Assembly (NCBI GenBank): GCA_963662285.2
Contig: CAXXMV010000001.1
Location: 192,001 to 256,000, forward strand
Reading direction: 5' to 3'
From: a bacterium
Lineage (GTDB): Bacteria > Hinthialibacterota > Hinthialibacteria > Hinthialibacterales > Hinthialibacteraceae
Length of the DNA: 64,000 nt
Below are positions 13,569 to 61,860 of the stretch, one piece after another. The translations under genes and the position numbers were made by a program. A model generated the notes under the pieces. That model was not told the DNA's origin. It searched no databases and saw nothing but the letters and a program-made list of their open reading frames with translations. Position 1 is the first letter of the stretch. Each line of letters begins with the position of its first letter.

Positions 13569-13620
13569 AGCGGGAGACGGGGTTCGAACCCGCGACCCTC
13601 AGCTTGGGAATCTGTTGCTC
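13569..13620 (-). mobile_element. att site: 3' fragment of tRNA-Gly(CCC)
   Basis: Reverse complement reads TTCCCAAGCTGAGGGTCGCGGGTTCGAACCCCGTCTCCCGCT (anticodon loop, T arm, 3' acceptor strand); no 5' acceptor strand or intact D arm; about 200 bp from an integrase. Confidence 0.85.
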
Positions 13621-13815: not shown

Positions 13816-14946
13816 TTGAGAATTATGGTTCGAAAACAATACCCTTATACTCTTAAACAAGAACGTGGATTTGGCTCCTTGAAACAAGAAGGGCCAAAAG
13901 CGAATTTTAGAATTTTTTATACTCAATCGGATGGAAATACGGGGAAAAAATCGACCAAAACAAGTGTTCCAGAAGAAGCCATTGAAATTTTTGATAGATG
14001 GATAAACGAACAAAAAGCGGGGCGTTATGGAATTCATCAACCTCAATTTCGTCCTGTTATCTTAAAAGAAATCGTCCCTAAATATTTAAGTGAAAAGAAA
14101 GAGCGAGTTAGTGAGAGATACTTTAAGTATGAAGAAAGCACATGGAAAAAAATTATCATGCCCTTCTTTGGTGACGATTCTCTAATAGGAAGCATTTCAG
14201 AAGAATGCATTGAAGAATATCTCCGTACTCGAAAAGAAAAAGGCTTATCGGCTTCAGCAATAAACCATGAGTTGCAATGGATTGACCTATTATTTAAATA
14301 TGCCATCCGAAAAAAGTGGTTACCGGATTATCTAAAACCAACGGTTCGGAAACTACCTTTAAAGAAGACTCTTCCAAATGTACTCAAATCCCCTAAGGAT
14401 TTTATCACTTTACTCGAAGCAGCAAAAAACCAATCAACTCACATGTATTATTTAATTTCATTTGCTCTTTATACGGGAATGCGAGCCGGAGAAATTTTGA
14501 AACTTGATTGGGAAGATATTGATCTAAGTAATGCTTCTCTTATAGTACGCGATCCAAAAAACAAGCACGACCGCATTGTATACTTAACCAAAACACTTTG
14601 TTCTATCTTAGAAGAAACCACTACAGGGAAACGAACAGGCCCTATCATTAAGAATCCACAAACCGGAAATCGTTTACAAGAATATAAAAAAGCATGGAAA
14701 ACTATACGAGAAAAAGCAGGTATCCCAACAACCGGGTCCAATCGAATCCGCTTTCACGATCTGCGTCACTCCTTTGCTACAATTAATCACGCTAACGGAG
14801 TCGATATAAAAATCATCAAAGATCTCATCGGCCACAAGAAAATAGACTCAACGTTAATTTATACACACCTTGTTGATCAGGTTCAAAAAGATGCTATAGA
14901 AAAAATGGATGAGATTATAAGTGACCGGGATCAAAGAAAAACTTAA
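13816..14946 (+). CDS. int: Tyrosine recombinase/integrase
   Basis: Catalytic R (TGMRAGE), K (DPKNK), HxxR (FHDLRHS), H (LIGHK), Y (TLIYTH). Confidence 0.95.
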   Translation: MRIMVRKQYPYTLKQERGFGSLKQEGPKANFRIFYTQSDGNTGKKSTKTSVPEEAIEIFDRWINEQKAGRYGIHQPQFRPVILKEIVPKYLSEKKERVSERYFKYEESTWKKIIMPFFGDDSLIGSISEECIEEYLRTRKEKGLSASAINHELQWIDLLFKYAIRKKWLPDYLKPTVRKLPLKKTLPNVLKSPKDFITLLEAAKNQSTHMYYLISFALYTGMRAGEILKLDWEDIDLSNASLIVRDPKNKHDRIVYLTKTLCSILEETTTGKRTGPIIKNPQTGNRLQEYKKAWKTIREKAGIPTTGSNRIRFHDLRHSFATINHANGVDIKIIKDLIGHKKIDSTLIYTHLVDQVQKDAIEKMDEIISDRDQRKT

Positions 14947-14954
14947 GATGTATT

Positions 14955-15146
14955 TTATTTTTGCGGAATTTCTTGTGAATTTATTACCCAGTTTTCAATA
15001 TCTGATAATTTGAATCGAATATATTTACCACTATTTCCTCCGATTTTGATGAAGGGAATCCGTTTTGCATGCGTTAGTTTATATATATACGATTTAGGGA
15101 CCTGGAGATATTCTGCTACTTGATCAACAGTCATTAAGGTTTCCAT
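14955..15146 (-). CDS. xis: Excisionase-like HTH DNA-binding protein
   Basis: LMTVDQVAEYLQVPKSYIYKL...IPFIKIG...IRF; convergent with the integrase. Confidence 0.85.
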   Translation of the reverse strand: METLMTVDQVAEYLQVPKSYIYKLTHAKRIPFIKIGGNSGKYIRFKLSDIENWVINSQEIPQK

Positions 15147-15229
15147 TTTTATTTCCCAATCCTTTACATCTATTCCGTTTCGCATCAGGATTGGCGAGAA
15201 AACCTCACCAATCCTCATTCGGACCGGAA

Positions 15230-15613
15230 CTAGGATCGATTGGATGGAGTACCGCGTCCTTTAGATTTCGGATTTAACTTCGCAAACATGTAAAGATCGT
15301 CTTTGGACGTTGAACTTATTCCATACAGAGCAAGCAAACTCTCAGGAAGTTCGCTTCCAGGTATTTGGATTAAGGATTGGATCTCCTTCCCAATCTTTTT
15401 GAAGACATCACCGATGGGATTTCTTTCATAGTGGATTTGCCCCTGTTCACTTTGTACTTTTTTCGAAACGCCGACAAAAACCATAGTCTCATCCATTATC
15501 AGATTCCTTTCTTTAAATGAAATTATTTGATGAATACAAACTGAATTCTGATTTTTACTACTGAAAAGGTCTTTAATCTTTTGATTGATTGTTTTTGACT
15601 GTTGCTGAAACAT
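15230..15613 (-). CDS. Hypothetical protein
   Basis: ORF in a co-directional gene run. Confidence 0.45.
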   Translation of the reverse strand: MFQQQSKTINQKIKDLFSSKNQNSVCIHQIISFKERNLIMDETMVFVGVSKKVQSEQGQIHYERNPIGDVFKKIGKEIQSLIQIPGSELPESLLALYGISSTSKDDLYMFAKLNPKSKGRGTPSNRS

Positions 15614-15619
15614 CGCCTT

Positions 15620-16003
15620 CTAATCTTTTTGCATGGTATAGCGAGGATCGTTATGGGAATAAACATTTACAACATTGGCAAAAACACGATCATCGGACTC
15701 TCTGTGTCTGATCTGAATGAAACAATGCGCTCCTATAATACCTTCGAAATCAAGGTTTTTCCCAAGTTCGAAATCTTGATTCGTAAGTTTTAGAGCCCAT
15801 CGAACCAAACGAGAGGAACGATTCATTTCTACTTTACACATCCCATTAACATAAGGATTTTGAAGGTCTTTTTGTAAAATGCGAAAATCGTATTGGGCGT
15901 AATCATTAATGATTGACATTCCAATACATTCTGCTGGATAGACGCCTTCTGGAACAAGTTTGTCTTCTTGCATGATAATGGTTGGGAATTCACTATTTTC
16001 CAT
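15620..16003 (-). CDS. DUF669-like/phage-type OB-fold ssDNA-binding protein
   Basis: VPEGVYPA...IIGAHCFIQIRH...FANVVNV pattern; AGGAG RBS. Confidence 0.55.
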   Translation of the reverse strand: MENSEFPTIIMQEDKLVPEGVYPAECIGMSIINDYAQYDFRILQKDLQNPYVNGMCKVEMNRSSRLVRWALKLTNQDFELGKNLDFEGIIGAHCFIQIRHRESDDRVFANVVNVYSHNDPRYTMQKD

Positions 16004-16030: not shown

Positions 16031-16546
16031 TTACCATTCATTACGGATATGATTTTTAATGTAAGGCGGGAACTCATTCATGACTGGAGATTGCAAAAGT
16101 GTTGGTGATTTAGATCTGGCAAGCCCAATCCATTTATTAAAATCGAATGGACGTTCCAAAAGATAAGATAAAACAATTAAATATGCGTAAGCTTGTTCTC
16201 GTTCGAATTCAGATAATAAATCATGCTGGAGGTTCGATAAAACAGTAATGGATTCCTCATAATTTCCTTGATGATAGGATCGAATCCCTGATTGCATTTT
16301 TAATCTGGATATTTTTAACATGTAAGAATTATTACGAGTGTTGCTATTTGATGGACTGACCGGAACCACGACAGGAAAAGACCTTGATATGGAGGAAATA
16401 GTAGATACTCGGTTCCATGATGATTTTGTTGAACTGGTTCTACATCCACTTGAGAGGATTAACAAAACCAAAAGCGTTCCTGCCATAAGAAAACGAAATC
16501 CCGCCGGAATGGAAATTGCTTTTTTATTGCGTTCCAAGTGATTCAT
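16031..16546 (-). CDS. Lipoprotein with TPR-like helices
   Basis: Lipobox LSSGC; GIRSYHQGNYEESITVL; 4-bp overlap with the upstream gene. Confidence 0.6.
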   Translation of the reverse strand: MNHLERNKKAISIPAGFRFLMAGTLLVLLILSSGCRTSSTKSSWNRVSTISSISRSFPVVVPVSPSNSNTRNNSYMLKISRLKMQSGIRSYHQGNYEESITVLSNLQHDLLSEFEREQAYAYLIVLSYLLERPFDFNKWIGLARSKSPTLLQSPVMNEFPPYIKNHIRNEW

Positions 16547-17403
16547 TTTTTCACCTCAATGATTTGAAATGTTCCTAAAGATAGGTTGACAATGATTCGT
16601 AGATTCTGTTGATCCAAAAGGAGAAAATCACGTTGCATGGGTCTATAGCCTTCTTTTTGAATTGAAAAGTGATGTTTTCCTTCTGATAACGTGAATCTTC
16701 GTGTTGGTACTTCTTGGCTTATTTCTAAAACACCATTAGCGTCTCGAATTGTGAACGAAGCCCAGGGATCACTATGAACCTGCAAAAAGCCAAATCCTTG
16801 TTGATGTGAAGTCCCTTCACTAGGAGTTACAGGAGAGGGAGTTTTGAAGTATTTTTTTTGGGGATTTTGGGAATTATTTTCTTTTTGTGTGTTTGGTTGA
16901 TTTGAATGAGGTAACGAAGCATACAAAAACAAAACCGTTATTCCAAGAAAAGTAGTCAAGGAAATGATATGTAGCAATTTGATTAATTTGAAATTAACAC
17001 TTTTTCTAAATTCCTGAAACCACTTCTTGTAAGAATGAAAATTGAACCTGCGCTTATAATTTTGTATCAGTTCAACGAATTCTTTGAAATCTTTCTTTAA
17101 TTGATTCCAGGAAAAGTTCTTGTCACCTGAATTGCTTTGATAAATTTGATCCCAATTTTTTTTAACAACATCGAGATTTTCCTTAATTTTCGTGTAAGCC
17201 ATTTTCAAGGCATTTATCTCGACTCTTGATGATATTTCATGCAGTTTACGATGAAACGCGCTATCTAAATGCTCTGGAGTCAAAGGCGATGCATCGACAT
17301 CAATGTTCAACGTATCCAAATATTGGCGTAATTGGATGAATTGTTTTTTCATAATCGCCTGCCCATAATACAGGAATGGGTCAGATACGGTGAACGGATT
17401 CAC
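16543..17403 (-). CDS. Membrane protein: degenerate J-domain-like N-terminus, one TM helix, C-terminal PEGA-like domain
   Basis: YLDTLNI...AS...LDSAFHRKL...LKMAYTKI (no HPD); TM IISLTTFLGITVLFLYA; GFLQVHSDPWA...LSEGKHHFSIQKEGY. Confidence 0.55.
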   Translation of the reverse strand: MNPFTVSDPFLYYGQAIMKKQFIQLRQYLDTLNIDVDASPLTPEHLDSAFHRKLHEISSRVEINALKMAYTKIKENLDVVKKNWDQIYQSNSGDKNFSWNQLKKDFKEFVELIQNYKRRFNFHSYKKWFQEFRKSVNFKLIKLLHIISLTTFLGITVLFLYASLPHSNQPNTQKENNSQNPQKKYFKTPSPVTPSEGTSHQQGFGFLQVHSDPWASFTIRDANGVLEISQEVPTRRFTLSEGKHHFSIQKEGYRPMQRDFLLLDQQNLRIIVNLSLGTFQIIEVKK

Positions 17404-17427
17404 CGTATCTCATCCAGGCCGGTATTA

Positions 17428-20400
17428 TCATTGGCGGAAATCAATATTTTCAATTTTATGAGTTAGGATTTCGACTTTGCCAGTAGCAAGATCTTTGACT
17501 TCGACAGTTAAAAGAGCGTCGTTATCAATATTGGCTTGAAGTTCAACCTGCGGAGTAGCGTTTTTTTCGAGAGGTTTCAAGTTAATTGTTGCTTGTAAAA
17601 GGATGGCATCTACATTTTCCTCAATAAATTTAGATTTAGGCTCAGAACTGGTAATGGTTATTTTTACTTGTTGCTGTCCTGGACTTTCCGTTCGATATTG
17701 TCCGATTTGTTTATGAGTAGGAATCGGCGTATTTCGAAGGAGAATTGGATCGTTTAACATATCACCGGAATATATATCTTTAATAACAACGCAAATGTCC
17801 CAGGGAAGTACATTATCAATTTTGGGTTTAGGAAGACACTTTTCTGTTCCTTCCGGTTTGATCGTCTCCTCCTCACGCCACAAGCAAGCCAAAACATTGC
17901 CTAAAGCTACATCATGTTGTGGATAATCACTCATCACAATTTCTGCATGAGGAAACATTTCTGCAATTGAACGAATAAAGAGAGGAATTCGTGATGTTCC
18001 ACCGGTTAAAATTACGGTTGAAATATCCATTGAAGAACATTTTGCATTTTGTACGGTCAAACCAACATCATGAAGAATTTTGTCAACAAGAGATTGGAAT
18101 TTTTCTTCGACCTCACTTAAAGATATATCACAGATTAAAAGATCTTTGCTAGATAAAACCACTTTTGCTTTTTCCATTTCTGTCAATTGATGCTTTGCAT
18201 CTTTAGCCGCATATTTAATTTCCGAATTAAGATGGGGATCTTTGGGTGTTTGACCATTAAATAGTTTTTCGACAATTAATTCACAGATGGCATTATCAAA
18301 GTCGATTCCAGCAATGGAGACAGCATGAGTTGATAGAATTTGAAAATGCTTATTGATGGGATCATGCGATCCAATATCAGACCTCCTGATCTGGTGGAAT
18401 TTCATCCGATACCAGTTTGTAGATTAGTCGCAATTCCGTGCCGGGGTAGATGGTTTCTGTGGCGTTGAGATTCGCTGCTAAGTTGCGGGCGGCTTGATCC
18501 GATAGGTGGTTGGTCAAATGGTGCAACTGCACCGTTAAGGTTTTGTTTTCCTCATCCGGAATGAGATCCGCTTCCGTCGCAAATATTTCCCGGATCAATG
18601 AGCGGGCATCGTCGCTTCGGGCCAATTTTGTTCGCACAATCATCGCCATGGCCGTCTCCGCCCGATAGGCGATCATTTTAATCGCATCGAGAAATTGTTT
18701 GCGCGTCGGAGCGAGTTGCAAAAACCGTTCCGGCTCCGGCAGTTGATTAAGCGGCAAGTGCTTGTCAACCGTTTTACGTTCCTCCTTCATCCCGGCCAGT
18801 TCATGCTCCAACTGCTCGATATCTTCTTTGATTTCCCCCTTTTTTTGTTCAAAGGATAAGATATCTTTCTCCTCCACCTGGGATTCCGTCAGCGCCAAAT
18901 TTCCAAACTCCGCCTTCTTTCTTCCCAATCGTCCCGCTTGTTTTTTTATCCGGCCTTCCAAAGAACGATAGGCGGGATTGACCACTTTCACGGTATCATC
19001 CGGCTTGACGAGATCGTAGTCGATAAGCCGATCAATTCCATAGTGTTGCATCATATAACGGAAAAAGTTTTCCTGTGACCATCGCGAGAACATATGCGCC
19101 GCAATACGGGTGAAATCAGAGGCGTAATCCGTACTGATCACCGAGGTTTGGTGACCGCTTTCTGTGAGTTTCCGGATTTCCCTTACCCACAAAACCCGGC
19201 CCAGGAACACCCCTCGCTCAGCCAATTTCATGCGGGATGAATGGCCGCCGGGCATCTCCACATTGACCTCGGTGAATTCCGCTTCCGGCCAATCTTCTTT
19301 GGGATACTTGTTGTAGGTTTGGCAGGCGATGCGGAGCGTCCGCATCTCCGCGAAGAAGGTTGGGCTGTATCCCTCACGGTCAAAGATCATGACAAACCGA
19401 TGGCAATAAGGATTCGCTTCGAGTTGTTGCGGGCTGGGCTGGTTGGGAACATCCTGCAGCAGTTGCGGCGCGATCTCGCGTTTCAACATATCCAGCAATC
19501 CCGCGGTGAACGGCGTGCTCACCACGAAGAACGGATCGCCCTGCTGATCGTTTACCCAATAGTCGGTCGTGCCCCGCATGCACAAGCGGTCGCGCGCCAC
19601 GTACCGTTTGGGGAGCGGAGTTTGCGAGCCGTGATAGACGCGTACGTGTCCATCGATATACAGAACTCCCGCCGCCTCTGGATTGTTATCCATCCAATGC
19701 CGTGACAAGATGCGGCTCCATTGCGCGACCGATTCGGGCGCCGCCAGGATTTTGATCTTTTCCCGCAAGGTCCGCACTTCGGGGATTCGATCCAATCCCA
19801 GCCATTTGCCCCCTTCTCCCGCCGGAAAATAGCGCAACTGTTCGTTGGTCTTGATCCGGATCAAGGCCATGAAAGCTAACAGCAGGAAAATATGAATGCA
19901 GGAATAATAACCTTTGGGCAGGGAGAACAAGGCTTCTGTTTTGGTCAACAATCCATTGGCCGATAACGCCGGCAGCGCCCAAAGCACGCCGCCATTGCAG
20001 ACGTCCAGCGAGGTCTCGAAACGGGTGGGCGCTTCGCTGAGTTGCCCCGTCGCCGCACAGACCCGCTCCACGACCCGCGTACATCCCATCCCCATGGGAG
20101 CGGCATGATCCGCCGCGCTGCGCTGGCTTTTGTTGCTGCCGTTCAGGTCTTTTTTTTTACCGGTTCGGTCAAGCGGCCTGCGCAGATCGCCTTCGACAAG
20201 GTATTCGATTTTAGATTCATTTGCTTCGCTGCTTCGGAACGGCTCACGCCCTGCGATAAGAGGTCTTGGGTTTTTTGCAACACCTCCGGCGTCAGGACAT
20301 GTTCGCTGCGTCGGCGCTGAGTTTTGAAGAATGCTTCCGGGCCTTCCTCGCGGTATTTCTTGACCCATCGCTTCATACTGATGGCGCTGATGCCAAAGGC

Positions 20401-21330
20401 TCTAACGATGTCAACTTGGCGGCAGACTCCACTGACCGCCAACTGGCTGGTGAACATGCGAAAACTTTTAAGGTCGGTTTCCCCATGACTGAAAACCGGT
20501 AATCCGGCATGAAAGTAGTACACCGATCCATCTTTTTTTTGATAGGAAATCAACTCGGATATGAATCCTTCGCCTGATGCGAATAGAGGTAATAAGGTCT
20601 GCGGCATTTTTTTAACTCCCTCATACTCTGCAGGATTGGCCTTCCCTCCAGTATCCTAACAAAATCCCGCGAGAACCGCAAACCACGGGTGAGCTCAGGA
20701 GGTCTGAATATAATTGTCACTCGTTCCTGCTCCGAGATCGATTACAAGCACGTTTCCTCGATTCTGGAGATCAGCCATGAATGAGAGCATCGCAGCAGTA
20801 GGTTCTTCTTGCATACCTACAATGTTGAATCCTGCCTGATTCATAATCTCATTGAGAGTCCTACGCTCATTGGAATCAAAATTAGCAGGATAAGAAAAAA
20901 AACAAGGAATGTCTTGAATGGATATTTTCAAAAGGTTTTCAATCCGCTTTTTTATTTCTTGAAGAAATAACAGGAGTGTTTCATTGGATGTAAAACATGC
21001 CGATTCGCTTGCAGCGTACGTTATTTCGGTATTTTTCAGCCCATTCTTGCCAATAAGAGAAATAATCCCATTACCTAATAACGCGCTGTTTTCGGCTTCA
21101 ATACCTATCAGGTACGAATCCTTTTCCTCAAAACTAATCAAACTGGGTATCAAAAGGTGCCCATTAAAAGAAAGGATATAGAAATAATGCGTTCCATTTT
21201 TTTCAATTGCGAGAATAACCTTGAGACCGCCGTTGCCGATATCGATCCCAAGCCACATTTTACCAATCCCTGAAAGATCAAGCTCCGGGCTGAAGATAGA
21301 CAGATTATCGCGTTTTTTACTGGTTATCAT
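17428..21330 (-). pseudogene. Divergent Hsp70/DnaK-family protein interrupted by an IS (about 520 aa when rejoined)
   Basis: GIDIG, YPANF, EEPTAA, DLGAGTSD | AGIDFD, LTGGTSRIP and SBD motifs; removing the IS and one TSD copy restores the frame (GTSDNYIGSHDP). Confidence 0.9.
18378..20706 (-). mobile_element. Insertion sequence (unclassified/IS1380-like DDE) with OrfA 20143-20607 and OrfB 18377-20158 joined by a probable -1 frameshift
   Basis: TIRs CAGACCTCCTGA / TCAGGAGGTCTG; TSD AATAT (18373-18377, 20707-20711); A9G run at 20149-20158; YIDGH, FDREG and RWSQENFF motifs. Confidence 0.9.
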
Positions 21331-21886
21331 TGTTTTCCTCCTCTTTTGGGGATTCATCTTTGGCAAGAATTACGAGGGTTGGTTGAAAATAATGATTTCC
21401 AACGGATGCCCCAAACTGATAAATTTCGACAATAGAGCCCTCTGTGTGATTCTTGTCTGATTCAACCGTATCAAATATCTGTTGGTTCGTAGGATCGAAC
21501 GGATTTTTTTCCAATTCAAATGGATCAGGAATGATAATGCCAATCTGATTCAGGGAATGGAGAAGGATGTCGAGCTGTTTTTTTGCTGTCTTGTGCTGAT
21601 TGGAACGCATATCCTTGGTTTTAACAATCTTATAAAGATTCGTTAAGACTAAACAAAGGTTATGAATACCTATTGTTGCTTCCAGAAGCCGGTCAATATC
21701 TTCACGAATTCGAGTGATCGAGTCGGCGTAACTACCCAAATCATTGATTTGCTTGGAAAATCCATTTTCTTTTATTTCCAGAAGCAATACTTTCATCTCT
21801 TTCAAGAGTTGGATCAGTTGATTGTTTTGATTGTCCGGAAATGCTGAATTGAGTAATTGTTCATCTTGGGAATTCTTCTGACTCAT
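21317..21886 (-). CDS. GrpE-like nucleotide exchange factor
   Basis: Long N-terminal helix, then PFDPTNQQIFDTV...GSIVEIYQFGASVG...QPTLVILAK; overlaps the Hsp70 start. Confidence 0.75.
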   Translation of the reverse strand: MSQKNSQDEQLLNSAFPDNQNNQLIQLLKEMKVLLLEIKENGFSKQINDLGSYADSITRIREDIDRLLEATIGIHNLCLVLTNLYKIVKTKDMRSNQHKTAKKQLDILLHSLNQIGIIIPDPFELEKNPFDPTNQQIFDTVESDKNHTEGSIVEIYQFGASVGNHYFQPTLVILAKDESPKEEENNDNQ

Positions 21887-22148
21887 TTTCTTGGTCCTTT
21901 CTTTATTGTTTATTCGAGAACACGCCCTACGAATAAAAGCAAAATATTCCTTCAATCTTCATTGTTTGAATCCACGTTTTACTTTTTTTAAAAAAAATGA
22001 GCAAAACCTGGAAACTAAAAGTAAAAGGTGAAAAGAAAGTAAAAATTGAATTCTCTTATCACTTATAGGAATCGGAGGGTGGTTTTGCTCAAAAAAACTT
22101 TTTGCTTTTCAAAAAGATAATTACTGAAGTAACAGGAATGGGAATGCT

Positions 22149-22613
22149 ATGAACAGATTCAAACGAAACATACTCAAAGAGGTATGCGAGTCTACGGGTA
22201 TTGATGTCGAGAATATATGTGAATCGAAGTTATATCTGGCTATCGTGCAACTATCCAAAGAATTTCGAATGGAAATTATTGTTGGGAGTATAACAGCAGA
22301 AGCCGGTGATTCCGGTGAACTGACTTTGATTATCCAACCCAAATTTCCTTGTGCGACTTGCATGCGGCTCATGGACAAACCTCAGACACAAATTATTGGA
22401 TTAACACAATGCTGCAGAAGAATCTACTGCAAAAGTTGCGTTTCTTCTCATACAACCTGCCGGAAGTGTGGAACAAAAGTATGCGCATACTGTGGTGAAG
22501 ATTTGCGGCCAATACGAAGAGGATTGGTGATTCACAAAGGGAAATGTTTTGATGAAATGATAAATTCTTTGGAAAACGGCGGACATCTGAATTGGATAAC
22601 CTATAAAAAATAG
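22149..22613 (+). CDS. Cys-rich zinc-finger protein
   Basis: CATC, CC, CKSC, CRKC, CAYC and HKGKC motifs. Confidence 0.6.
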   Translation: MNRFKRNILKEVCESTGIDVENICESKLYLAIVQLSKEFRMEIIVGSITAEAGDSGELTLIIQPKFPCATCMRLMDKPQTQIIGLTQCCRRIYCKSCVSSHTTCRKCGTKVCAYCGEDLRPIRRGLVIHKGKCFDEMINSLENGGHLNWITYKK

Positions 22614-22624
22614 AGCGAGTATCA

Positions 22625-24598
22625 ATGATGAAATTTGATACACCTGAATTCCAAAAAGCAATCGAAAAAATTCGTTTTTTACTCTCGACTCCAGCAGCAC
22701 AAAATGATTGCAGATTGCAACGATACTACGCTCAATTTATCAAACGGCAATCAGAAAAAAAACTAAAGAGGATATTAGAGTATATTAAAAAGAAAGGTTA
22801 TGACAATTATAACCCACATGGAATTCGTATCGTCGATAAGAACGATCCAATTTCTAAGGGAGAGATTCCTCTTGGACATGATTCGGATTATAAAAATCCG
22901 GTTTATTTGACGCTGGATGAAATGGTCAGAAGTGCTTTAATCTGCGCTGAACCAGGTGCGGGGAAAACCTCTGAATTAATCCCACTCATAGAATCAAGTA
23001 TACACCATGGAATCAATCCATTAATTTTTGTAAAAAAACTGCATCAATTTGAATATATTGCAGATCCAAATAACGAACCATTTACTGTATTTGGATTGAA
23101 TGAGTTACGGTATTCAATGTTCGAATGTGATGATGAAACGGATTTTACTTTGTGGTGTCAGTTTATTGCCGGTCTTATCGTAAACATTTACAGTTTACAA
23201 AACAGTGCGGGATATTTGCTGAAAGCGGCAAAACTTTTAGCAGCGGATTGGCCTTTGGAGCGGCGGTTACAAGAAGGATTTCCAACCTGTTTTGATTTAT
23301 CTCAAAAACTCACCTCTCTGAAAACACCTTATCACGACAAAAAATATATTCATAGCGCTAACACCATTTTAATGACTATTTCGGAATCAACAGACCTCTT
23401 TCATGCAAGAAATGGAATGTACCAGTCCATCCTCTCACGGCCAACAATTGTCTATTATGAACCGGGAAAAACACAACTGGTTGAATTACTTCTTTCTTTA
23501 ATGGCGTATCGCTTTAAAAATGAGAATCAGAGATTACAACATGATCAGCGAAAATATTGGCTGATTATTTGGGATGATGCACAGGAATTTTTACTGGGCC
23601 GGATCAGTGATCGACTACCACCGATTGTGGAACTTATTTCCATCTTACGTGAGTTTTTGCTTGGATTTATTTTTTCATTTCAAACATTAAAGCAGATTGA
23701 TCCTCAAATTGCCGCGATTCCATGTACACGGATTGTTGGACGATTATCTGATGCTCACGAAGCCTACAACGCGACCAAAATTTTGGGGATTGACGAAACG
23801 TATGCGCCCCATATTTCCATACTGAACGACGGCCAATTTTTGGTGAAATCGCCGAACAGCCAAGGTGTTGTTTTATTTAAGGGTATTTATAAACCAATTC
23901 CGTTCCCTAAAGATCTGCAACAATGGATGTTGGATAATGAGCAAAGGAAAAGCCTGTATCAATGGACGCCATTTGAATTACAACAAGATGAATCTTTTAG
24001 CAAAAATAATGAAGATATATCAGAACTAGAAACCCGAATTTTCTGGCAGATTTTGAATCATCCTTTTGACACGAGAGACGAACACCAAAAATCTCTTAGC
24101 CTTTCTTCTTCAACAATCAATAAAAACACTCAAAAACTTGTTGATCGGCAATATCTGAAAAAACATAAAATTTCTCATTGGGTTGCTTATGAAATTTTGG
24201 AACAAGGATGGATCTTTTCCAATCAAAAACCGACGGTGCATAAAGGCGGTTACCCGCATGAATTCGCTGTAGATAGAATCCAGCGCATGTTGAACGCAAA
24301 TGGATTCACCGTTCAACGAGAACAAACACTGCCCCCAACAAACCACCCCATCGATCTTGTCGCAATAAAAGATGGCATAATCGTGGCTGTTGAAATCGAA
24401 ACGGGGAAATCAAATATTGTTTCAAATATCTTAAACTGCAAAAAAACAACGGCAAACCAAATTGTTATCGTCGGAATTACGGATATTACAACGAGAAAAA
24501 TTTGTAAAGACATTAAAGATAATCCTGAATTGGAGCCTTCAGTCATGACCAATCGTCTCCAAGTAATCAGCCTGTGGAATTTTTTGCATGAAAAATAA
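22625..24598 (+). CDS. HerA/VirD4-like P-loop ATPase fused to wHTH and PD-(D/E)xK-like domain
   Basis: Walker A AEPGAGKT, Walker B IIWDDAQ, LREFLLG...FQ; C-terminal H...IDLV...VEIETGKS. Confidence 0.75.
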   Translation: MMKFDTPEFQKAIEKIRFLLSTPAAQNDCRLQRYYAQFIKRQSEKKLKRILEYIKKKGYDNYNPHGIRIVDKNDPISKGEIPLGHDSDYKNPVYLTLDEMVRSALICAEPGAGKTSELIPLIESSIHHGINPLIFVKKLHQFEYIADPNNEPFTVFGLNELRYSMFECDDETDFTLWCQFIAGLIVNIYSLQNSAGYLLKAAKLLAADWPLERRLQEGFPTCFDLSQKLTSLKTPYHDKKYIHSANTILMTISESTDLFHARNGMYQSILSRPTIVYYEPGKTQLVELLLSLMAYRFKNENQRLQHDQRKYWLIIWDDAQEFLLGRISDRLPPIVELISILREFLLGFIFSFQTLKQIDPQIAAIPCTRIVGRLSDAHEAYNATKILGIDETYAPHISILNDGQFLVKSPNSQGVVLFKGIYKPIPFPKDLQQWMLDNEQRKSLYQWTPFELQQDESFSKNNEDISELETRIFWQILNHPFDTRDEHQKSLSLSSSTINKNTQKLVDRQYLKKHKISHWVAYEILEQGWIFSNQKPTVHKGGYPHEFAVDRIQRMLNANGFTVQREQTLPPTNHPIDLVAIKDGIIVAVEIETGKSNIVSNILNCKKTTANQIVIVGITDITTRKICKDIKDNPELEPSVMTNRLQVISLWNFLHEK

Positions 24599-24872
24599 AG
24601 CATTTTATTCATCCATTTATTTTCGAGAAAGGATATTGATCATGAACAGTGCAGAACGATTTGAGTATTGGGTATCGATGGCCGTTGCCTTAGCACTTAT
24701 TTTGGTAGGTGCAAACTATTACCCCGGCGTCGAAAAAATCTTCTTTGAGCGGGGAGGTATTTTAATCTTTATCATTGTGGCTATTTGGATACCGTTTAGG
24801 ACTCCTTCTTCCAATGAAAAAGGAAAAAAACCGGTCTTTTTCTGGGATGATGACAACGATGAAAAGAGGTAG
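24588..24872 (+). CDS. Small two-TM membrane protein
   Basis: Two hydrophobic segments; directly follows the ATPase. Confidence 0.55.
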   Translation: MKNKAFYSSIYFRERILIMNSAERFEYWVSMAVALALILVGANYYPGVEKIFFERGGILIFIIVAIWIPFRTPSSNEKGKKPVFFWDDDNDEKR

Positions 24873-24875
24873 AAA

Positions 24876-25103
24876 ATGAATGGTTTCGATAAACAAAAAA
24901 AGATGAATTCAGAACACCGTGATTATCATAAAAAAATTGTTCTGGACAGTTTTTGCGATCCATTTGTGCGGATTGTGCAGGAAGACCAAGAGTTTTCGGA
25001 TAACTCACAACCTGGCCCATCCCGCTGGTCTATTGAAAGGAAAACATTTTATGCGATCCTCATTTTTGCTCTACTGGCACTTATACTTGTTCTTCGGCTA
25101 TAG
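24876..25103 (+). CDS. Small protein with C-terminal TM anchor
   Basis: FYAILIFALLALILVL; GAGG RBS. Confidence 0.5.
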   Translation: MNGFDKQKKMNSEHRDYHKKIVLDSFCDPFVRIVQEDQEFSDNSQPGPSRWSIERKTFYAILIFALLALILVLRL

Positions 25104-25152
25104 GAAAAACAAGTATTGTCGTGAACATTTTTTGCCATAAGCAACCATAGTT

Positions 25153-25190
25153 AACGCAGAACAGAAATTGTTCTGCGTTTTATTTTTATT
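25153..25190 (+). terminator. Rho-independent terminator
   Basis: AACGCAGAACA-gaaat-TGTTCTGCGTT followed by a T-rich tract. Confidence 0.75.
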
Positions 25191-25630
25191 TCCCAGGCTC
25201 ATATAACTCTAAAAAAGAAAATAAAATCCATCATACAACGGTCGATTCAACGAAATGACCACTAATGCAATTATTGCAAACAAGTACCCCACTCTCAGAA
25301 TGAAAAGGAAGGGGAAACTTGAAAATCAAAAACCAAATATCCGGTCCAATGGGTCGGATTCCCAATCAATAAAAGCCCTCAAGGGCTATCATGAAAACAC
25401 ATCATATCGCCCGTTCCGAAGGAACGGGCCTCAATAAATGAGTCCGAAGGACCATCATGAGGTCAAAATAAATCGCTCATCCAAAAGAACAGGTTTCAAA
25501 AAATGAGCCAATACATTCATCAATTATTCTAATATTCTGCATCATCTGTGCTGAAATAAATAAGTTCGATACACATCTATTATCCATTAATGGATCGAAC
25601 CAATAATCGTAAAAATGAAAAAAGAGGGGA

Positions 25631-25975
25631 TTATCCCCTCAATATTTTCACTTTTCGACAGAACGCCTGAACACGTTGTTGCTCCCATGGGTGAATAACA
25701 CGGGCCTTACGTTCCCGTTCAATCTCCTTATAAACCTCGGTAGCCGCACGAGGATTTATATCGCAAAACTCCTCTTGGAGATCAGGATCGCTTGCTCTTG
25801 CAAGACTCCTTTCTTGCTCAACACCGTCGAGTCCCAAATCGTCCGATTCGTCACTGCTGTTGTTGATGCTAAAACACAATTCAAATTCTCTTATATCCAT
25901 TTTCATTACCTCCGAAGGAGACCATCTTTGTTGGCTCTTCACATCTCGAAGAGCCACAAAGGAATGGACTATCAA
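25631..25975 (-). CDS. Hypothetical protein
   Basis: Acidic ORF; likely start near 25907 after GGAGGT. Confidence 0.4.
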   Translation of the reverse strand: MIVHSFVALRDVKSQQRWSPSEVMKMDIREFELCFSINNSSDESDDLGLDGVEQERSLARASDPDLQEEFCDINPRAATEVYKEIERERKARVIHPWEQQRVQAFCRKVKILRG

Positions 25976-26151
25976 ATAATCCAGCGAAATAGAAAGAGTC
26001 GGAGCGTTAAGTGGGCCACAACGATAAATGTTTCGTTCTCGACTATCAAAAATTGTGAATAAATCGAAGAACGAACCATTTACGTTTGTGGACTGCGGCT
26101 CAGACCAAACCTTAAAAATCGCGGATTCTTTGATCTATAAAGACTCAAAAA

Positions 26152-26553
26152 TCACTTTTTCTTCTCCAGATCAATTCCAACATCATGAAAGAAACGCCTG
26201 AATAAAACAAAAGATCGCTGTAACACATGTAAATCAAAAGAGATGTTCCCATCCTTCGTTTCTTCTTCCACAAGTTTCTTGTGGTAATAACTCAAAACCT
26301 TCTTTTCTAAAAGCGATGCAAACTGCGACAATCGAACAAACTCAAAAAAATCGAGAACCAGCGGTTCCCCAAGATACTTTGCATATGTTTTCTCGTAATA
26401 TCGCTTTTCCTGGTTATAGGGTTCAAGCCCGGATGAATACAATCCGGTATTGTTCGTATAGCCATTGAACTTGTCATATTTCCCTTCAATGGGAGAGTTA
26501 AAATACTTATCAATGTTGATACTCATTTTTCCATCCTCCTGTGAACCACTCAA
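26152..26553 (-). CDS. Hypothetical protein
   Basis: GGAGG RBS before ATG 26526. Confidence 0.5.
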   Translation of the reverse strand: MSGSQEDGKMSINIDKYFNSPIEGKYDKFNGYTNNTGLYSSGLEPYNQEKRYYEKTYAKYLGEPLVLDFFEFVRLSQFASLLEKKVLSYYHKKLVEEETKDGNISFDLHVLQRSFVLFRRFFHDVGIDLEKKK

Positions 26554-26618
26554 TTCGGTGGTTCTCCTATCAATGGAGAGAAACCACCGAAAAACAGTAT
26601 TCTAAGAAAACAACGCCC

Positions 26619-26912
26619 CTATTGGAGCGTTGTTTGAAGCAATTGCTCTTCTTCCAGGTTCAACTCTGGATTTCCCTCATTGAACAGATCCATGACGGAA
26701 AAAAGACTGCGCAGATCGTCTGCTTGACACCAGATTTGCTGATTGTTCCATTCACCAGTTGAGCGATTCTTCTGGCTGTATTGAATACACACCCGGAATG
26801 TTTCGATTATCCTATCGGTCTGAAATGATTCATTCCGAATTACTTTCTCTTGTTTCCAGAGACTGATCTGGAAGCGGCCATTTCGCGTTTTGTATATAGG
26901 TTTTGTTTTCAT
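26619..26912 (-). CDS. PC4-like putative ssDNA-binding protein, paralog 1
   Basis: KP...GRFQISLW...IQYS...TGEW...DDL pattern shared with the ORFs at 27753 and 61918. Confidence 0.5.
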   Translation of the reverse strand: MKTKPIYKTRNGRFQISLWKQEKVIRNESFQTDRIIETFRVCIQYSQKNRSTGEWNNQQIWCQADDLRSLFSVMDLFNEGNPELNLEEEQLLQTTLQ

Positions 26913-27036
26913 TGATTTCACCTCTTGTCCAATCGGACGTTTCTACTCAGTAAAACGTTCGATTCTAGAGAGGTGAAATATTCAATGAAACAATCCTATC
27001 AAAGAGCGTTTGACGCTTCAGCTGTGTCGTTGGAAT

Positions 27037-28064: not shown

Positions 28065-28250
28065 GTTTTCACCTCGCAACGATGGCGATACCCGATTGTC
28101 CATCGTTGCACAAAGCTTAAATAGAAGTTCATGCACTCTTTATGAGTCCTAAGTGACAACGATTTTGACCGGCTACAGAACCCGCAACATGCGCTAATCC
28201 AACAAAAAAGAGCAGCGATATATTCGAACGCTAATGGAAAGGAGACGTCT

Positions 28251-29292: not shown

Positions 29293-29295
29293 ATC

Positions 29296-29880: not shown

Positions 29881-29920
29881 AAATTGTCGGTCGTAATGTT
29901 CAAGGAAAGGATAATAAAAA

Positions 29921-30235: not shown

Positions 30236-30260
30236 TAAAAGATAAGCATTCACAAAGGAT

Positions 30261-59326: not shown

Positions 59327-61384
59327 TCATTCAGCGGTGGGTTTTTGTTCTGGAAAGGATGCCTTGCGGCATGGATCACTTTCCGATTTTTTATGTCTTA
59401 TAACATCGGCGCAATGTCCGATGAATATGTTTGGATGTTCGGCTTGTAGTTTGGTAAGCCTTGCATGAATGTGATAGGTCGCTTCCGCATCAGTTCCGAG
59501 TACGTATATTCGCTCGTATCCTGCTTCCAAATTTTTCGAAACATTCTTTATATAATCGGATTTTGCGGACTCGATTTCGACGGGTATCTTTTCATTGTCT
59601 TTCATGATCATGAGATCGACATAATTCCCCGATGGTAATTGGTATTCTGGGATGACAGTGTATCCCTGTTTTTGAAAGTACTCCTTGACTTTGCTTCGCC
59701 AGTACTCATGAACCAGTCCGGGATTCCTTTTTGCATTTTGTTTTGAATCATTGACATCAAGCAAAACCACCTTGCCCTGATGGGTCAGTATATCAACAGG
59801 CTTGATGATGCCTCTTGCTTGCAATTCTTCTTTAATTAAATTTCCTTTTCTTCTACTTAGCGATAGTCGCTTGTACCTTTGTACTACTCCAGTTAGTGGA
59901 TTTTTCCGCACATCCTCTAGAAAAGCCTTTTCCATCTCCGATAAAGGCTTTTCCCATGCCTTTCTATCACTTGGCGATTCCTGCGAAACCGGTATGGAAA
60001 CGCCTTCAAAGGTCTGATTCTGGCTGGAATGGCCGGAATAGGCCTGCATATAGTCTTGGATGAACTGATCAGTTATGACTTTGTGTTTTTGCATGATGTG
60101 GGGAACAACGATCAAAAATGGTTTGGTCCAACGGCCTTGCAATTTGACAATCGCTTGCCCCACCTCTAACCGGTTGAGATATTGTTTCTGTTCTCCATCG
60201 AACATGAGATAGGATGACGATGCATTGACGTCTTCACGTGATTTGAGATTCATTGAAAAGGTGCAATACGTATTTCCAATTGCTTGTAATGAGGTTTGCG
60301 AGGGGTGCTGATCCACCAAAACGATTGCCTCACCCAGTTCACGAATTTCACGCAGGAGTAGATCGGTTGTACCTTCGCTACTCCCCGTGGTTTGCTTTTT
60401 GAGTAAGTGATGTGCTTCTTCGATGAATATGGCGTGGCGAAACTCGTCACGGGTTTCGTTTTTGGCTAGGCGGTAATGGTGAATCCACAAAAGTAGAGAT
60501 TCAATGAAGAATATCTTATCCGTTGAGGTCAGGGAATCGAGTTCCAGGATCACCGGTTTGTCCAAGATATCCGCCACAGAAGCGTTCGATTGCGTGGTGA
60601 GAACTTCACCCATTGCACCAAACGATAAGGCGGAAAGGGCACGTTGGGTGGATGCCATCCAGTTAGCCGCTCTCCCCTTAACGCTCATGTCTTGAATGAC
60701 TTGTACGAGATCTTGCATGGTGGGATACTGCTCGACATCGCCCGCATAAACGCCGCTTTCACGGTAGAGTTTATCGAGTCCCTGCTGGAGTAAAAACATG
60801 ACGCCCTCGCCAACGAATGTGGCTTTAGCCAAAATTTCAATCAGTTTTTTGAGCCATGCTGTTGGTTCGGTTTTTGGGGGAGGGATGAAGGGATTGAAGT
60901 GGAATGGAACAAGGTTGTTTCCAACCGTGTAGATCATTACGGGGAAATCACTGTTTTCTGTGATAATGCTGCGGTAATTGCGTTTCCAGTCAAAGATCAA
61001 AAACGGCTTTTTCTTTTGCAGCAAGTTGGCGATTAGCATGTAGACAAGGTTTGTTTTGCCACTACCGCTCCTTCCGAATACAGCCAGATGCTGCACCCAT
61101 TCTTTCTCCCGTAAACCAAACTCATCCCGTATTTGTCCATTGTATAAAACGCATCCCACGGGATACTCACCCTGGATCAAATCATTGGGTGGCGGCGGCA
61201 ATAAGATTCCTTCGTCATCAACTCGACGGCGAAGTGATTCAATGTACAGTTGCTCCACCATGCTCTCAATTTCACGCTTGCCTTCTGCATCCTCGATCTT
61301 ATACGCTCTCCAAAGTCGATCAATAATTTCTCCATAGATAGGTTTGAGGGCTTTCAAAGTTTCTTCATTGAGGATAACGATCAC
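59327..61384 (-). CDS. HerA/VirD4-like ATPase fused to wHTH and PD-(D/E)xK-like domain (second copy)
   Basis: HLAVFGRSGSGKT, IFDWK, IEEAH, REIRELG..DQ; C-terminal HEYW...VDL...VEIESAKS. Confidence 0.8.
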   Translation of the reverse strand: MIVILNEETLKALKPIYGEIIDRLWRAYKIEDAEGKREIESMVEQLYIESLRRRVDDEGILLPPPPNDLIQGEYPVGCVLYNGQIRDEFGLREKEWVQHLAVFGRSGSGKTNLVYMLIANLLQKKKPFLIFDWKRNYRSIITENSDFPVMIYTVGNNLVPFHFNPFIPPPKTEPTAWLKKLIEILAKATFVGEGVMFLLQQGLDKLYRESGVYAGDVEQYPTMQDLVQVIQDMSVKGRAANWMASTQRALSALSFGAMGEVLTTQSNASVADILDKPVILELDSLTSTDKIFFIESLLLWIHHYRLAKNETRDEFRHAIFIEEAHHLLKKQTTGSSEGTTDLLLREIRELGEAIVLVDQHPSQTSLQAIGNTYCTFSMNLKSREDVNASSSYLMFDGEQKQYLNRLEVGQAIVKLQGRWTKPFLIVVPHIMQKHKVITDQFIQDYMQAYSGHSSQNQTFEGVSIPVSQESPSDRKAWEKPLSEMEKAFLEDVRKNPLTGVVQRYKRLSLSRRKGNLIKEELQARGIIKPVDILTHQGKVVLLDVNDSKQNAKRNPGLVHEYWRSKVKEYFQKQGYTVIPEYQLPSGNYVDLMIMKDNEKIPVEIESAKSDYIKNVSKNLEAGYERIYVLGTDAEATYHIHARLTKLQAEHPNIFIGHCADVIRHKKSESDPCRKASFPEQKPTAE

Positions 61385-61386
61385 CT

Positions 61387-61860
61387 TTAAGGTATACGTG
61401 ACTGTAAAACATAAGGTTCTATTAATGCATTACGCCGTTTCACCGATTCTGCCGATTCCATATTGGAAAGAAGGTCTTTCGAGAGATTGTGAACATCCTG
61501 CCAAAACGACAATTGCCCTTGACGATCCTCACGTGATAAAGCAATTAGGTTTTGTTCCAAACTCCATCGCATTGAATCCCTGGCCTGATTAATCCCAAAC
61601 GGCTCATCATCGAACTGAATTAGATGATTGCGAACACGCTGTACATCATATTGTCGTGAACGGGATTGTTCCCTTTCAAGAGAAACTCTTGTTAAAAGAG
61701 CCTTAGCCGTATGGTCCAATAAGCGATCAGACTGACCGATTTTCTCATGATGAAGAATACTTAAGGGATCGAAATCACTTTTTGGATATGAGTGTTGCTG
61801 TTCTGTTTTTGCTGGAAGGGATATATTCATATACCAAGGAGGGTTGGAGGAGTTTTCCAT
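61387..61860 (-). CDS. Hypothetical coiled-coil protein
   Basis: ORF ends 2 bp before the ATPase start. Confidence 0.5.
   Translation of the reverse strand: MENSSNPPWYMNISLPAKTEQQHSYPKSDFDPLSILHHEKIGQSDRLLDHTAKALLTRVSLEREQSRSRQYDVQRVRNHLIQFDDEPFGINQARDSMRWSLEQNLIALSREDRQGQLSFWQDVHNLSKDLLSNMESAESVKRRNALIEPYVLQSRIP

Follow-up and report, generated by a model that had tools for sequence, protein, structure and literature searches.

How integrated islands spread in phyla that have no recognisable conjugation genes is an open question, and a four-gene operon from a bacterium of the phylum Hinthialibacterota (assembly GCA_963662285.2) bears on it. The operon lies at positions 22149-25103 of the window, by which we mean the whole 64,000-nt stretch of DNA analysed here (contig CAXXMV010000001.1, positions 192,001 to 256,000 of the forward strand). 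Its second gene encodes a protein of 657 amino acids (aa) in which an ATPase, a winged helix and a nuclease are fused. A sequence-only reading had taken this protein for a VirD4-like coupling ATPase joined to a relaxase, that is, for an unusual mobilisation system, and had named a HerA-nuclease defence role as the alternative. What would such a fusion do in an island? The answer we favour, at a probability of about 0.45, is that it is an island-encoded motor that cuts and pumps the DNA of its own island and belongs to the backbone module of tRNA-integrating islands, not a classical coupling protein with its relaxase. The HerA-relaxase-like fusion would then be a testable candidate for spread without a type IV secretion system (T4SS).

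Gene content of the operon

The operon is tightly packed on the plus strand and consists of four open reading frames (ORFs) with a terminator 3' of them. ORF calls, hydropathy and the stem-loop agree with its earlier description as a Zn-finger-type protein, an ATPase fusion, two small transmembrane (TM) proteins and a terminator.

22149..22613, plus strand: Cys-rich partner of two-zinc type, 154 aa (ORF call; Cys invariant)
22625..24598, plus strand: ATPase-winged helix-PD-(D/E)xK fusion, 657 aa (ORF call)
22847..23974, plus strand: HerA-clade P-loop ATPase domain of the fusion (PADLOC mad8, 9.3e-12; Foldseek 4d2i; profile against the PDB)
23987..24229, plus strand: MarR-type winged helix of the fusion, residues 455-535 (VIA-align Z 10-12 to MarR proteins, model residues 1-81)
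24254..24595, plus strand: PD-(D/E)xK nuclease domain of the fusion, residues 544-657, with H545, E566, D577, E590 and E592 (AF1548 fold match)
24588..24872, plus strand: two-helix small membrane protein, 94-aa ORF, 76 aa from the probable start at 24642 (hydropathy, homologue alignment)
24876..25103, plus strand: tail-anchored small membrane protein, 75 aa, C-terminal helix 57-75 (hydropathy)
25153..25179, plus strand: intrinsic terminator with a 12-bp stem, a 3-nt loop and a T-run

The Cys-rich gene ends 11 nt before the start of the ATPase gene. A terminator scan of the region gave 8 terminator-like sites, against 3.8 ± 1.7 in shuffled sequences. None of the four proteins exceeded a curated threshold in Pfam or NCBIfam or had a match in PHROGs. 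The sole PADLOC match in the operon was that of the 657-aa protein to mad8 (residues 80-416), a model that spans the ATPase core only; the partner proteins had none.

HerA-clade ATPase domain

As a single query the 657-aa protein returned nothing useful from Pfam, PHROGs or a phmmer search of the PDB, and a word-indexed search of 5.8 billion proteins retrieved the protein itself alone. With HMMER, 223 relatives were found among 1.84 billion representatives at E ≤ 1e-3 (8 at E ≤ 1e-30), many of them 640-720 aa long and alignable from end to end. In 50 relatives, Pfam matched DUF87 (HerA, PF01935) in 36, TrwB_AAD_bind weakly in 17, HerA_C in 14 and P-loop_TraG in 11, while PADLOC matched mad8 in all 50 and its HerA model in 40. 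The window protein itself had no Pfam match, the coupling-protein families PF02534 and PF10412 included. No other mad model was matched among 21 neighbouring proteins scanned for the MADS system.

The Walker A motif (GAGKT) occupies residues 111-115 and the Walker B motif (WDDAQE) residues 316-321. G113 and K114 were invariant in the 50 full-length relatives, as were D577 and E590 in the nuclease domain; R342, taken as the arginine finger, H545 and E566 were conserved in at least 90% of them. An AlphaFold2 monomer model built with 150 sequences had a mean predicted local distance difference test score (pLDDT) of 94.3 and a predicted template modelling score of 0.76; with its fold matches, it bears out the order ATPase, winged helix, restriction-like nuclease proposed from the sequence. 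In the model a helical bundle (residues 171-255) is inserted between ATPase core strands, as in the HerA fold.

The top Foldseek match in the PDB was Sulfolobus solfataricus HerA (4d2i_A, 1.4e-14 over 389 columns), followed by the DndH C-domain (7es4, 5.6e-14); HerA-NurA, Sir2-HerA, TdpAB and DUF4297-HerA came next, ahead of VirB4 (8.6e-12) and TrwB (5.3e-11). A viral structure library gave generic FtsK/HerA/A32 ATPase matches only. The family profile was more discriminating against the PDB. It scored 8.6e-32 with HerA, 5.2e-30 with the DUF87 protein 8yho, 1.5e-25 with Sir2-HerA and 3.2e-23 with DptH, compared with 3.8e-13 for VirB4, 3.3e-12 for TdpA, approximately 1e-8 for coupling proteins, 1.1e-7 for DotL and approximately 1e-7 for FtsK; TrwB was absent from the best 60 of the 99 matches. 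Since this comparison separates the clades clearly, we place the ATPase by sequence in the HerA clade and not in the VirD4 clade. Additionally, hydropathy indicated no N-terminal TM anchor, the sole segment over the threshold (331-349) lying inside the ATPase core. The VirD4-like assignment was therefore abandoned on both counts, profile and anchor.

The C-terminal winged helix-nuclease module

Folded alone, the C-terminal 200 residues reached a pLDDT of 93.1. The best fold match of the nuclease domain was AF1548 (1y88; Z 9.8, root-mean-square deviation 3.4, 102 residues), and further matches were Bax1, R2 endonuclease, Hjc, NucS and XisH, in keeping with the alpha-beta-beta-beta-alpha-beta core of the PD-(D/E)xK superfamily. 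The nuclease motif reads H545 ... E566 ... D577-x12-E590-x-E592-x2-K595, in which the usual lysine of PD-(D/E)xK enzymes is replaced by E592 and K595 follows three residues further. The motif seen in the sequence is thus real, with a spacing of twelve residues between D577 and E590 rather than the eleven first counted. H545, E566, D577 and E590 were conserved in at least 90% of 150 sequences. Among 45 homologues of the C-terminus, stand-alone or fused, six matched Mrr_cat, five MTES_1575, two each AHJR-like and Hjc, and one NucS_C.

A relaxase-like C-terminus had also been proposed, and here the outcome was divided. The Pfam model Replic_Relax (PF13814) matched none of the 45 C-terminal homologues at E ≤ 0.01 and none of the 50 full-length relatives at E ≤ 0.001. 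Because Replic_Relax genes adjoin distant members of the family, the module was compared with a Replic_Relax profile built from 38 database proteins, each with a precomputed PF13814 annotation. With this profile hhalign returned 77.2% (E 2e-5) over 190 colinear columns, pairing the winged helices, GG-EH with iEH, VD with PDG and A-EIETGKS with FLEVDmGTES; an earlier profile of four sequences had given 61%. Reciprocal plain hidden Markov model (HMM) searches reached up to 22 bits, confined to the winged helix. PF13814 is the MobC profile of CONJscan, as described in the relevant passages of PMC5357655, and this identity together with the hhalign colinearity supports the relaxase likeness. We therefore describe a modest resemblance, at the level of sequence profiles, between the winged helix-nuclease module and Replic_Relax/MobC, a likeness that implies neither family membership nor common descent.

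Conjugation genes

The genome assembly (7.29 Mb in 8 contigs, 92.5% complete) contained no match to PF03135 (VirB4), PF02534 (VirD4/TraG), PF03432 (relaxase), PF13814 or PF19044. For PF12846, a Dnd-linked ATPase alone was over the cut-off, with one sub-threshold ORF at C1:712745. The blank for PF13814 is a weak one, because the control for this profile was positive in 0 of 14 control genomes. A complete T4SS with a relaxase just outside the window, which would have spoken against the sequence-only reading, was thus not found. In five other genomes with ArdC- or Replic_Relax-linked copies of the fusion, VirB4 was found in none and VirD4 in one.

Island borders and the divergent operon

The operon lies in an island, as had been supposed, with an integrase gene, an xis-type gene and a tRNA-Gly repeat on its left side. 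On that side it is preceded by a second operon on the opposite strand, which begins with a GrpE-like gene, ends in xis and shares a control region with it.

13569..13610, minus strand: 42-nt 3' fragment of tRNA-Gly(CCC), left attachment-site repeat (identical copies in the genome)
13816..14946, plus strand: tyrosine integrase (Pfam Phage_integrase, 2.5e-31)
14955..15218, minus strand: Xis/AlpA-type HTH_17 protein, last gene of the GrpE-Hsp70 operon (Pfam HTH_17, 3.3e-13)
15230..16003, minus strand: two 127-aa proteins of the GrpE-Hsp70 operon (ORF calls)
16031..16546, minus strand: membrane protein Y, N-terminal hydrophobic helix (hydropathy; homologues in L010, L018 and L020)
16543..17403, minus strand: membrane protein X, central hydrophobic helix (hydropathy)
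17428..18405, minus strand: Hsp70-like gene, C-terminal piece (Pfam HSP70, 5.5e-21, profile positions 210-495)
about 18384..20593, minus strand: insertion sequence (IS) splitting the Hsp70-like gene (Transposase_29, 1.5e-201, and an HTH_28 ORF)
20695..21366, minus strand: Hsp70-like gene, N-terminal piece (Pfam HSP70, 3.1e-14, profile positions 96-199)
21317..21955, minus strand: GrpE-like protein, first gene of the divergent operon (Pfam GrpE, 6e-4, below the cut-off; homologues in L010, L018 and L020)
21956..22148, no strand: shared divergent control region with repeats (repeat search)

The tRNA fragment was noticed through its very high depth in one sequencing run. Copies of the 42 nt occur at C1:183091, 205569 (the window copy) and 277986 and also within an intact tRNA-Gly gene at C1:299180-299252. 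Separated by these identical tRNA 3' ends, three islands stand in tandem at tRNA-Gly(CCC). The operon belongs to the middle one, which is 72.4 kb long and extends past the window, and lies 8 kb from its left border. A second integrase gene (C1:297928-298983) adjoins the intact tRNA-Gly. Within the window no whole tRNA and no long direct repeats as island ends were found, and an Rfam search of 13200-13900 gave a chance-level match only. Run X3, which has the same organism label and comes from another sample, covered the region 12500-32499 in only 3 of 30 bins, which hold the tRNA fragment and an IS piece; it gave no contig joining across the island and shows neither an empty site nor absence of the island.

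The genes from GrpE to xis lie on a single strand with gaps of at most 30 nt, except at the IS-interrupted Hsp70 gene. The GrpE-like protein had weak matches to seven NCBIfam GrpE models. Homologues of the HTH_17 protein and of the protein at 15620-16003 (44% identical, 135 aa) are found at equivalent places in a second island of the genome, and the latter protein had a weak match to the NGO0469-type rep-initiator HTH (2.6e-7, below the cut-off). The proteins at the position of membrane protein X in L010 and L018 likewise have a central helix, with no sequence match to it. In runs X1 and X2 the Transposase_29 IS assembled as a separate contig, roughly six times as deep as the sequence on either side, for which reason we regard it as multi-copy.

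In the control region there are three copies of the motif AAAGTAAAA: an inverted one at 21973-21986 and two direct ones, at 22018 and 22036. Positions 21998-22008 and 22081-22091 form a perfect inverted repeat with arms of 11 nt. These repeats may be operator-like; the region is AT-rich, and chance would also be a possible source. As regards a candidate nicking site, AT-rich repeats were the only feature seen there.

Recurrence in the genome and phylum

Five members of the family are present in the genome: two islands carry a pair each, and the remaining copy is interrupted by an IS. The second copy in the window, copy B, is a distant relative.

59327..61860, minus strand: copy B, a second fusion (685 aa, 59327-61384) with a 157-aa coiled-coil partner (DUF87, 4.8e-12; partner in cluster c1)

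It shares 21% identity with the 657-aa protein over 582 residues (E 1e-12), colinear across all three domains. The four-gene cassette recurs elsewhere in the genome at 36-39% identity. This cassette (copy D, locus L010) includes a fusion at C8:1294486-1296516 that is 37% identical to that of the window, a Cys-rich partner (36%), a two-helix membrane protein (38%) and a tail-anchored protein. Its divergent operon encodes a GrpE-like protein, an intact Hsp70-like protein, two membrane proteins, the 135-aa protein (44%), a 75-aa protein and an HTH_17 protein, and a tRNA-Lys gene follows immediately, 6 kb from copy D. The tRNA-Lys island spans 165 kb with copy D at one end, has a 45-nt tRNA-end repeat at its far side beside another integrase and also holds copy A, which an Orc/Cdc6 gene adjoins. 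A group II intron reverse transcriptase/maturase gene (L010:6397-7659) lies 0.8 kb downstream of the cassette in this second island. The fifth copy, in L011 (C1:166701-186690), is without its N-terminal third and adjoins a DDE_3 transposase gene; downstream of it stand a PNP_UDP_1 phosphorylase-EAD7 fusion and a TIR-domain protein, a typical conflict-system pair.

The close subfamily was found in 5 genomes of the phylum (35 species genomes), and in 596 pattern matches among JGI metagenome contigs none was confirmed. The whole arrangement recurs in L010 and in genome G003 (locus L018) at 27-37% identity, beside xis and/or an integrase. In G003 it comprises the Cys-rich gene, the fusion, the tail-anchored protein, GrpE, Hsp70, membrane protein Y and two integrases. 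In G019, GrpE, Hsp70, Y and an integrase stand beside a truncated ATPase, and the position expected for the Cys-rich partner gene, flanked by the truncated ATPase and the GrpE/Hsp70 operon, is taken by a gene with an AEP-TOTE primase domain (L020:5685-6857). The contig of G012 ends within the ATPase, after which both small membrane proteins are present. G004 has a truncated ATPase alone, among housekeeping genes. The arrangement was thus present in four of the five loci with upstream DNA, G004 being the exception.

Small partner proteins

The Cys-rich protein has 13 Cys residues. Nine or ten of them, in the pattern C-x2-C ... CC-x4-C-x2-C-x6-C-x2-C-x4-C-x2-C, are invariant in its three aligned homologues: C68, C71, C88, C89, C94, C97, C104, C107 and C115, and also C112. 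It had merely 4 matching proteins in the 5.8 billion searched and no family match in Pfam, PADLOC, NCBIfam or PHROGs, and it is unrelated to the coiled-coil partner family of the wider group by hhalign (0.1%). The two-helix membrane protein probably starts at 24642, as suggested by an AGGA 10 nt upstream and by the homologue alignment; it has homologues 3' of the ATPase in L010 and L021. Single-helix proteins occupy the position of the tail-anchored protein in L010, L021 and L018.

An acidic-aromatic motif, P-x-F-F/L-x-D-D-D, is common to the cytoplasmic tails encoded at 24800-24872 of the window, L010:8742-9008 and L021:10204-10425, and runs of a similar kind, FFFDEEE, occur in the second small protein of G012. 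From its sequence this tail looks like a docking peptide for some partner. A complex prediction of the ATPase with the two-helix membrane protein scored 0.00 in a run without controls and speaks neither for nor against binding.

The wider family

A search of species-representative genomes with an alignment of the copy-B type gave 284 pattern matches, of which 250 were confirmed and 80 loci kept. The hosts include Ignavibacteria, Phycisphaerae and other Planctomycetota, Latescibacterota, Aminicenantes, Zixibacteria, Chloroflexi, DPANN-type archaea and others, and some genomes have two to three copies. Neighbours were counted at the 72 loci with an ATPase longer than 300 aa. The gene directly upstream on the same strand encodes a coiled-coil protein of approximately 200 aa (cluster c1) in 33/72 and a protein of approximately 140 aa (c6) in 9/72; neither belongs to a known family, and the c1 coiled-coil profile had no relative in the PDB. 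The other neighbours, by number of loci, were as follows.

Tyrosine integrase: 19
Orc/Cdc6: 11
ArdC: 10
Stand-alone Replic_Relax: 5
DNA methylases: 5
HTH_3: 5
Resolvase: 3
RadC: 3
MoxR/VWA: 3 + 3
RHS: 3

At least one mobile-element marker (integrase, Orc/Cdc6, ArdC, Replic_Relax, resolvase, RadC, DUF6876 or Mu transposase) was present at 36 of the 72 loci. A further 147 unclustered neighbours were surveyed within three genes, a span that differs from that of the marker census, so that the two sets of counts are not directly comparable. The majority belonged to no family. The others were a mixture that encodes type I restriction subunits (two loci), GmrSD, TIR plus HEPN, HepT/MNT and an Eco57I-type methylase, and also transposases, one more integrase, an NrS-1-type primase, kinases and surface proteins. 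Among 2.9 million viral contigs, 45 pattern matches were obtained and none confirmed. In PLSDB plasmids, 44 records matched the ATPase part only by tblastn and none covered 80% of the query.

Further contents of the island

To the right of the operon the same island encodes a resolvase, an ArdC-like gene, a Dnd cluster with a DndE-fused HerA-like ATPase, and MoxR/VWA genes. The phosphorothioation cluster (39376-53572) contains DndE, a DndD-like AAA_23 ATPase, a PAPS-reductase DndC and DndB, with a cysteine desulfurase on the opposite strand; a Methyltransf_35 gene split by an ISL3 transposase (46316-48683); an HATPase_c_3 protein; the DndE-fused HerA-like ATPase (50025-51512); and another AAA_23 ATPase. 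On the same arm, at 29296-31406, a DUF5131 protein (PADLOC PDC-M41B/M30B, 2e-69) and a DUF3987 primase/helicase-like protein (30261-31406) are encoded, possibly a replication module. Pairs of a MoxR (AAA_5) and a CobT-like VWA gene lie downstream of copies A and B (window 54968-57954 and L009:16848-19888). Outside the island, at 12363-13241, two ORFs of 113 and 162 aa correspond to the two halves of the Pfam model of a SASA-type carbohydrate esterase, possibly a frameshift or pseudogene at the island border.

Proposed function and alternatives

In the function we propose, the 657-aa protein would assemble into a ring of the HerA type and use ATP to pump double-stranded DNA. In each subunit the winged helix would read a DNA site and the restriction-type nuclease, with its MobC-like build, would cut or nick there. 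The Cys-rich protein would be a lineage-specific adaptor or regulator, and the two small membrane proteins would anchor the motor at the inner membrane. The operon and the divergent GrpE-Hsp70-membrane protein-xis operon would be under one control region, and because this region is common to the operon that ends in xis, the motor would act upon island excision. Its likeliest job would be the processing of island DNA after excision and the export of this DNA from the cell, or its delivery to a pore, with no T4SS involved; known parallels are TdtA/NurA of Thermus and TraB of Streptomyces. In favour of this transfer motor are the position beside xis and integrase, kept over deep divergence, the control region in common with the xis operon, the relaxase-like winged helix and nuclease, the membrane partners, the mobile-element neighbours, the several copies per genome, the blank T4SS marker profiles and the T4SS-free precedent of TdtA with NurA. 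By extension, the islands of the phylum, and with them the family of 250 loci, might transfer DNA by an unrecognised T4SS-free apparatus made of a HerA pump joined in one polypeptide to a MobC-like site-specific nuclease, two very small membrane proteins on which it docks, two more membrane proteins and an Hsp70/GrpE pair of the island for assembly or power, with expression tied to that of the excisionase, which we regard as rather doubtful.

Several observations weigh against a transfer motor. In sequence and in fold alike, the ATPase is nearest to HerA proteins that belong to repair and defence systems (HerA, Sir2-HerA, DUF4297-HerA, DptH/DndH, TdpA), and an extensive Dnd defence cluster is present in the window. 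At 77%, the likeness to relaxases is modest, and the direct HMM matches miss the nuclease part. No pore, origin of transfer or excised circle was found in the analysis. The Hsp70 gene of the window copy is broken by an IS, so that this island may no longer be active. The syntenic loci all come from one element family in one small phylum, and core and cargo are therefore not fully separable. In the wider family the constant part is a two-gene pair only, the partner and the fusion, and about nine loci have restriction, GmrSD, TIR, HEPN or toxin-antitoxin genes nearby. Finally, neighbourhoods with Orc/Cdc6, a restriction endonuclease (REase), HerA/FtsK and a winged helix have been interpreted as immunity in main-text passages of PMC10853773.

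The last point leads to the alternative that the sequence-only reading had already named and that remains a serious rival, namely that the island carries a module for defence against phages or plasmids. In this case the HerA ring would load on foreign DNA and the fused nucleases would destroy it, while the Cys-rich protein would sense or restrain, the membrane proteins would stand at DNA entry or act as abortive-infection effectors, and Hsp70/GrpE would be regulatory chaperones. A HerA-clade ATPase with intact nuclease residues on every subunit suits this role, as do the mad8 matches of the window protein and of all 50 relatives, the fold neighbours Sir2-HerA, DUF4297-HerA, DptH and TdpAB, and the defence genes near the operon in the window and at about nine of the 72 loci. 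MAD7-MAD8 is described as an ATPase-nuclease module required for defence (PMC13662399, passages on this module), and Hsp70 plus GrpE occur in predicted conflict systems (PMC7159879, passages on these systems). Against defence, cargo usually varies, whereas this module has kept its place beside xis and integrase in elements whose proteins are 27-37% identical. It shares its control region with an operon ending in xis, its winged helix-nuclease is colinear with MobC relaxases, its neighbours ArdC, RadC, Orc/Cdc6 and Replic_Relax are mobile-element genes, and its partner proteins are blank in PADLOC. We judge defence to be a real contender, well short of an even chance. If it is correct, a MobC-type winged helix-nuclease fold has been recruited into immunity and an Hsp70/GrpE pair is tied to a HerA nuclease; with either outcome a function would be gained for a family of which hundreds of members stand unannotated in species-representative genomes.

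The remaining explanations keep the motor and change its task. In island maintenance it would act on the excised circle, in its partition, in dimer resolution or in processing linked to replication, with the winged helix reading an island site and Hsp70/GrpE activating the replication initiator. DnaK/GrpE activate the replication initiators of some plasmids, and FtsK-type motors whose winged helix reads a DNA sequence take part in dimer resolution. To this precedent the weak rep-initiator HTH match in the GrpE-Hsp70 operon, the DUF3987 primase/helicase-like gene at 30261-31406 and the Orc/Cdc6 neighbours at 11 of the 72 loci can be added. Partition, however, needs neither an active nuclease on each subunit nor two membrane proteins, and no ParA/ParB-type genes were seen in the module with Pfam, so that we consider maintenance unlikely. 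If the protein instead packaged the genome of a virus-like element that contains a membrane, with the small membrane proteins at the packaging vertex as in PRD1, this would account for the two small membrane proteins in the operon and for the FtsK/HerA-type packaging ATPases among the matches (STIV B204, A32-like). These viral fold matches concern the ATPase only and are weaker than or equal to those of cellular HerA; no family member was confirmed in the 2.9 million viral contigs, the four operon proteins are blank in PHROGs, and no capsid-like family was present among 24 neighbouring proteins scanned. Packaging is thus very unlikely. A true VirD4-family coupling protein fused to a true MOB_C relaxase and hijacking a T4SS is the least credible of all. 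The weak matches to TrwB_AAD_bind (17/50 relatives) and P-loop_TraG (11/50) and the TrwB fold match (5.3e-11) would agree with it, but it is largely refuted by the HerA profile score (8.6e-32, against approximately 1e-8 for coupling proteins, with TrwB outside the best 60 of 99 matches), the missing N-terminal membrane helices, the lack of a Replic_Relax Pfam match in 95 members scanned and the lack of a T4SS marker in the genome.

Comparison with known systems

MOB_C relaxases such as TraX of pAD1 and MobC of CloDF13 work with a coupling ATPase. They resemble the module described here in having a winged helix followed by a restriction-type nuclease, with the same order EH ... D ... E-x-(E/D)-x-G. 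In mobilisable islands, genes for an ATPase, an excisionase and an integrase adjoin that of the Replic_Relax relaxase (PMC5357655, passages on these islands). Here, in contrast, the module forms the C-terminal part of an ATPase of the HerA clade, is missed by the Pfam model and occurs without a T4SS.

In Thermus thermophilus the HerA-like hexamer TdtA and a NurA-like nuclease, both encoded on ICETh1, are responsible for T4SS-independent DNA donation, and TdtA is partly membrane-associated and needed to push DNA out (PMC5365140, passages on TdtA). A HerA-clade ring ATPase with a nuclease on an integrative element is common to both systems. They differ in that NurA is a separate protein there and that the Thermus system has neither a winged helix nor a Cys-rich partner and lacks small membrane proteins and an Hsp70 operon as well. 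TdtA was compared by description; TdpA, the Thermus-type HerA in the PDB, scores just 3.3e-12 with the family profile.

Related neighbourhoods of HerA/FtsK, winged helix and REase are already in print in general terms, with varying fusion order, a helical bundle in the ATPase and links to mobile elements (PMC10853773, passages of section 22). The same domains are found here, and Orc/Cdc6 occurs at 11 of 72 loci of the wider family and beside copy A. The Orc/Cdc6 genes here probably lack the inserted dead nuclease described in those passages, since their products have approximately 350 aa. The Cys-rich and membrane partners and the Hsp70 linkage are unmentioned in those passages, which give an immunity reading. 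In a limited literature search, which for PMC10853773 extended to main-text passages, no paper was found that describes the arrangement in the window. Three features appear to be new: the profile-level likeness between the C-terminal module and MobC, the membrane proteins and Cys-rich protein as partners, and the fixed pairing with GrpE/Hsp70-xis at island ends.

The closest ATPases are those of HerA defence and repair systems (Sir2-HerA/Nezha, DUF4297-HerA, MAD7-MAD8, DndH/DptH, TdpAB, HerA-NurA), which share the logic of a ring motor with a nuclease; their effector, however, is a separate protein or a different domain. MADS is an eight-gene operon with a methyltransferase, a kinase, MAD3/4 and MAD7 (PMC13662399, passages on the operon). 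No Sir2, DUF4297 or NurA was present among the proteins scanned beside copies A-E with Pfam, NCBIfam and PHROGs, a scan that did not include a sequence search for MAD7 relatives, and PADLOC found no Sir2, DUF4297 or NurA partner beside the window copy.

TraB of Streptomyces plasmids is an FtsK-like motor that recognises clt repeats through a C-terminal winged helix; it contains a membrane domain of its own and no nuclease. It is like the protein proposed here in being a single-protein motor for the transfer of double-stranded DNA with a sequence-reading winged helix. TraB differs in belonging to the FtsK clade, whose match to this family is approximately 1e-7.

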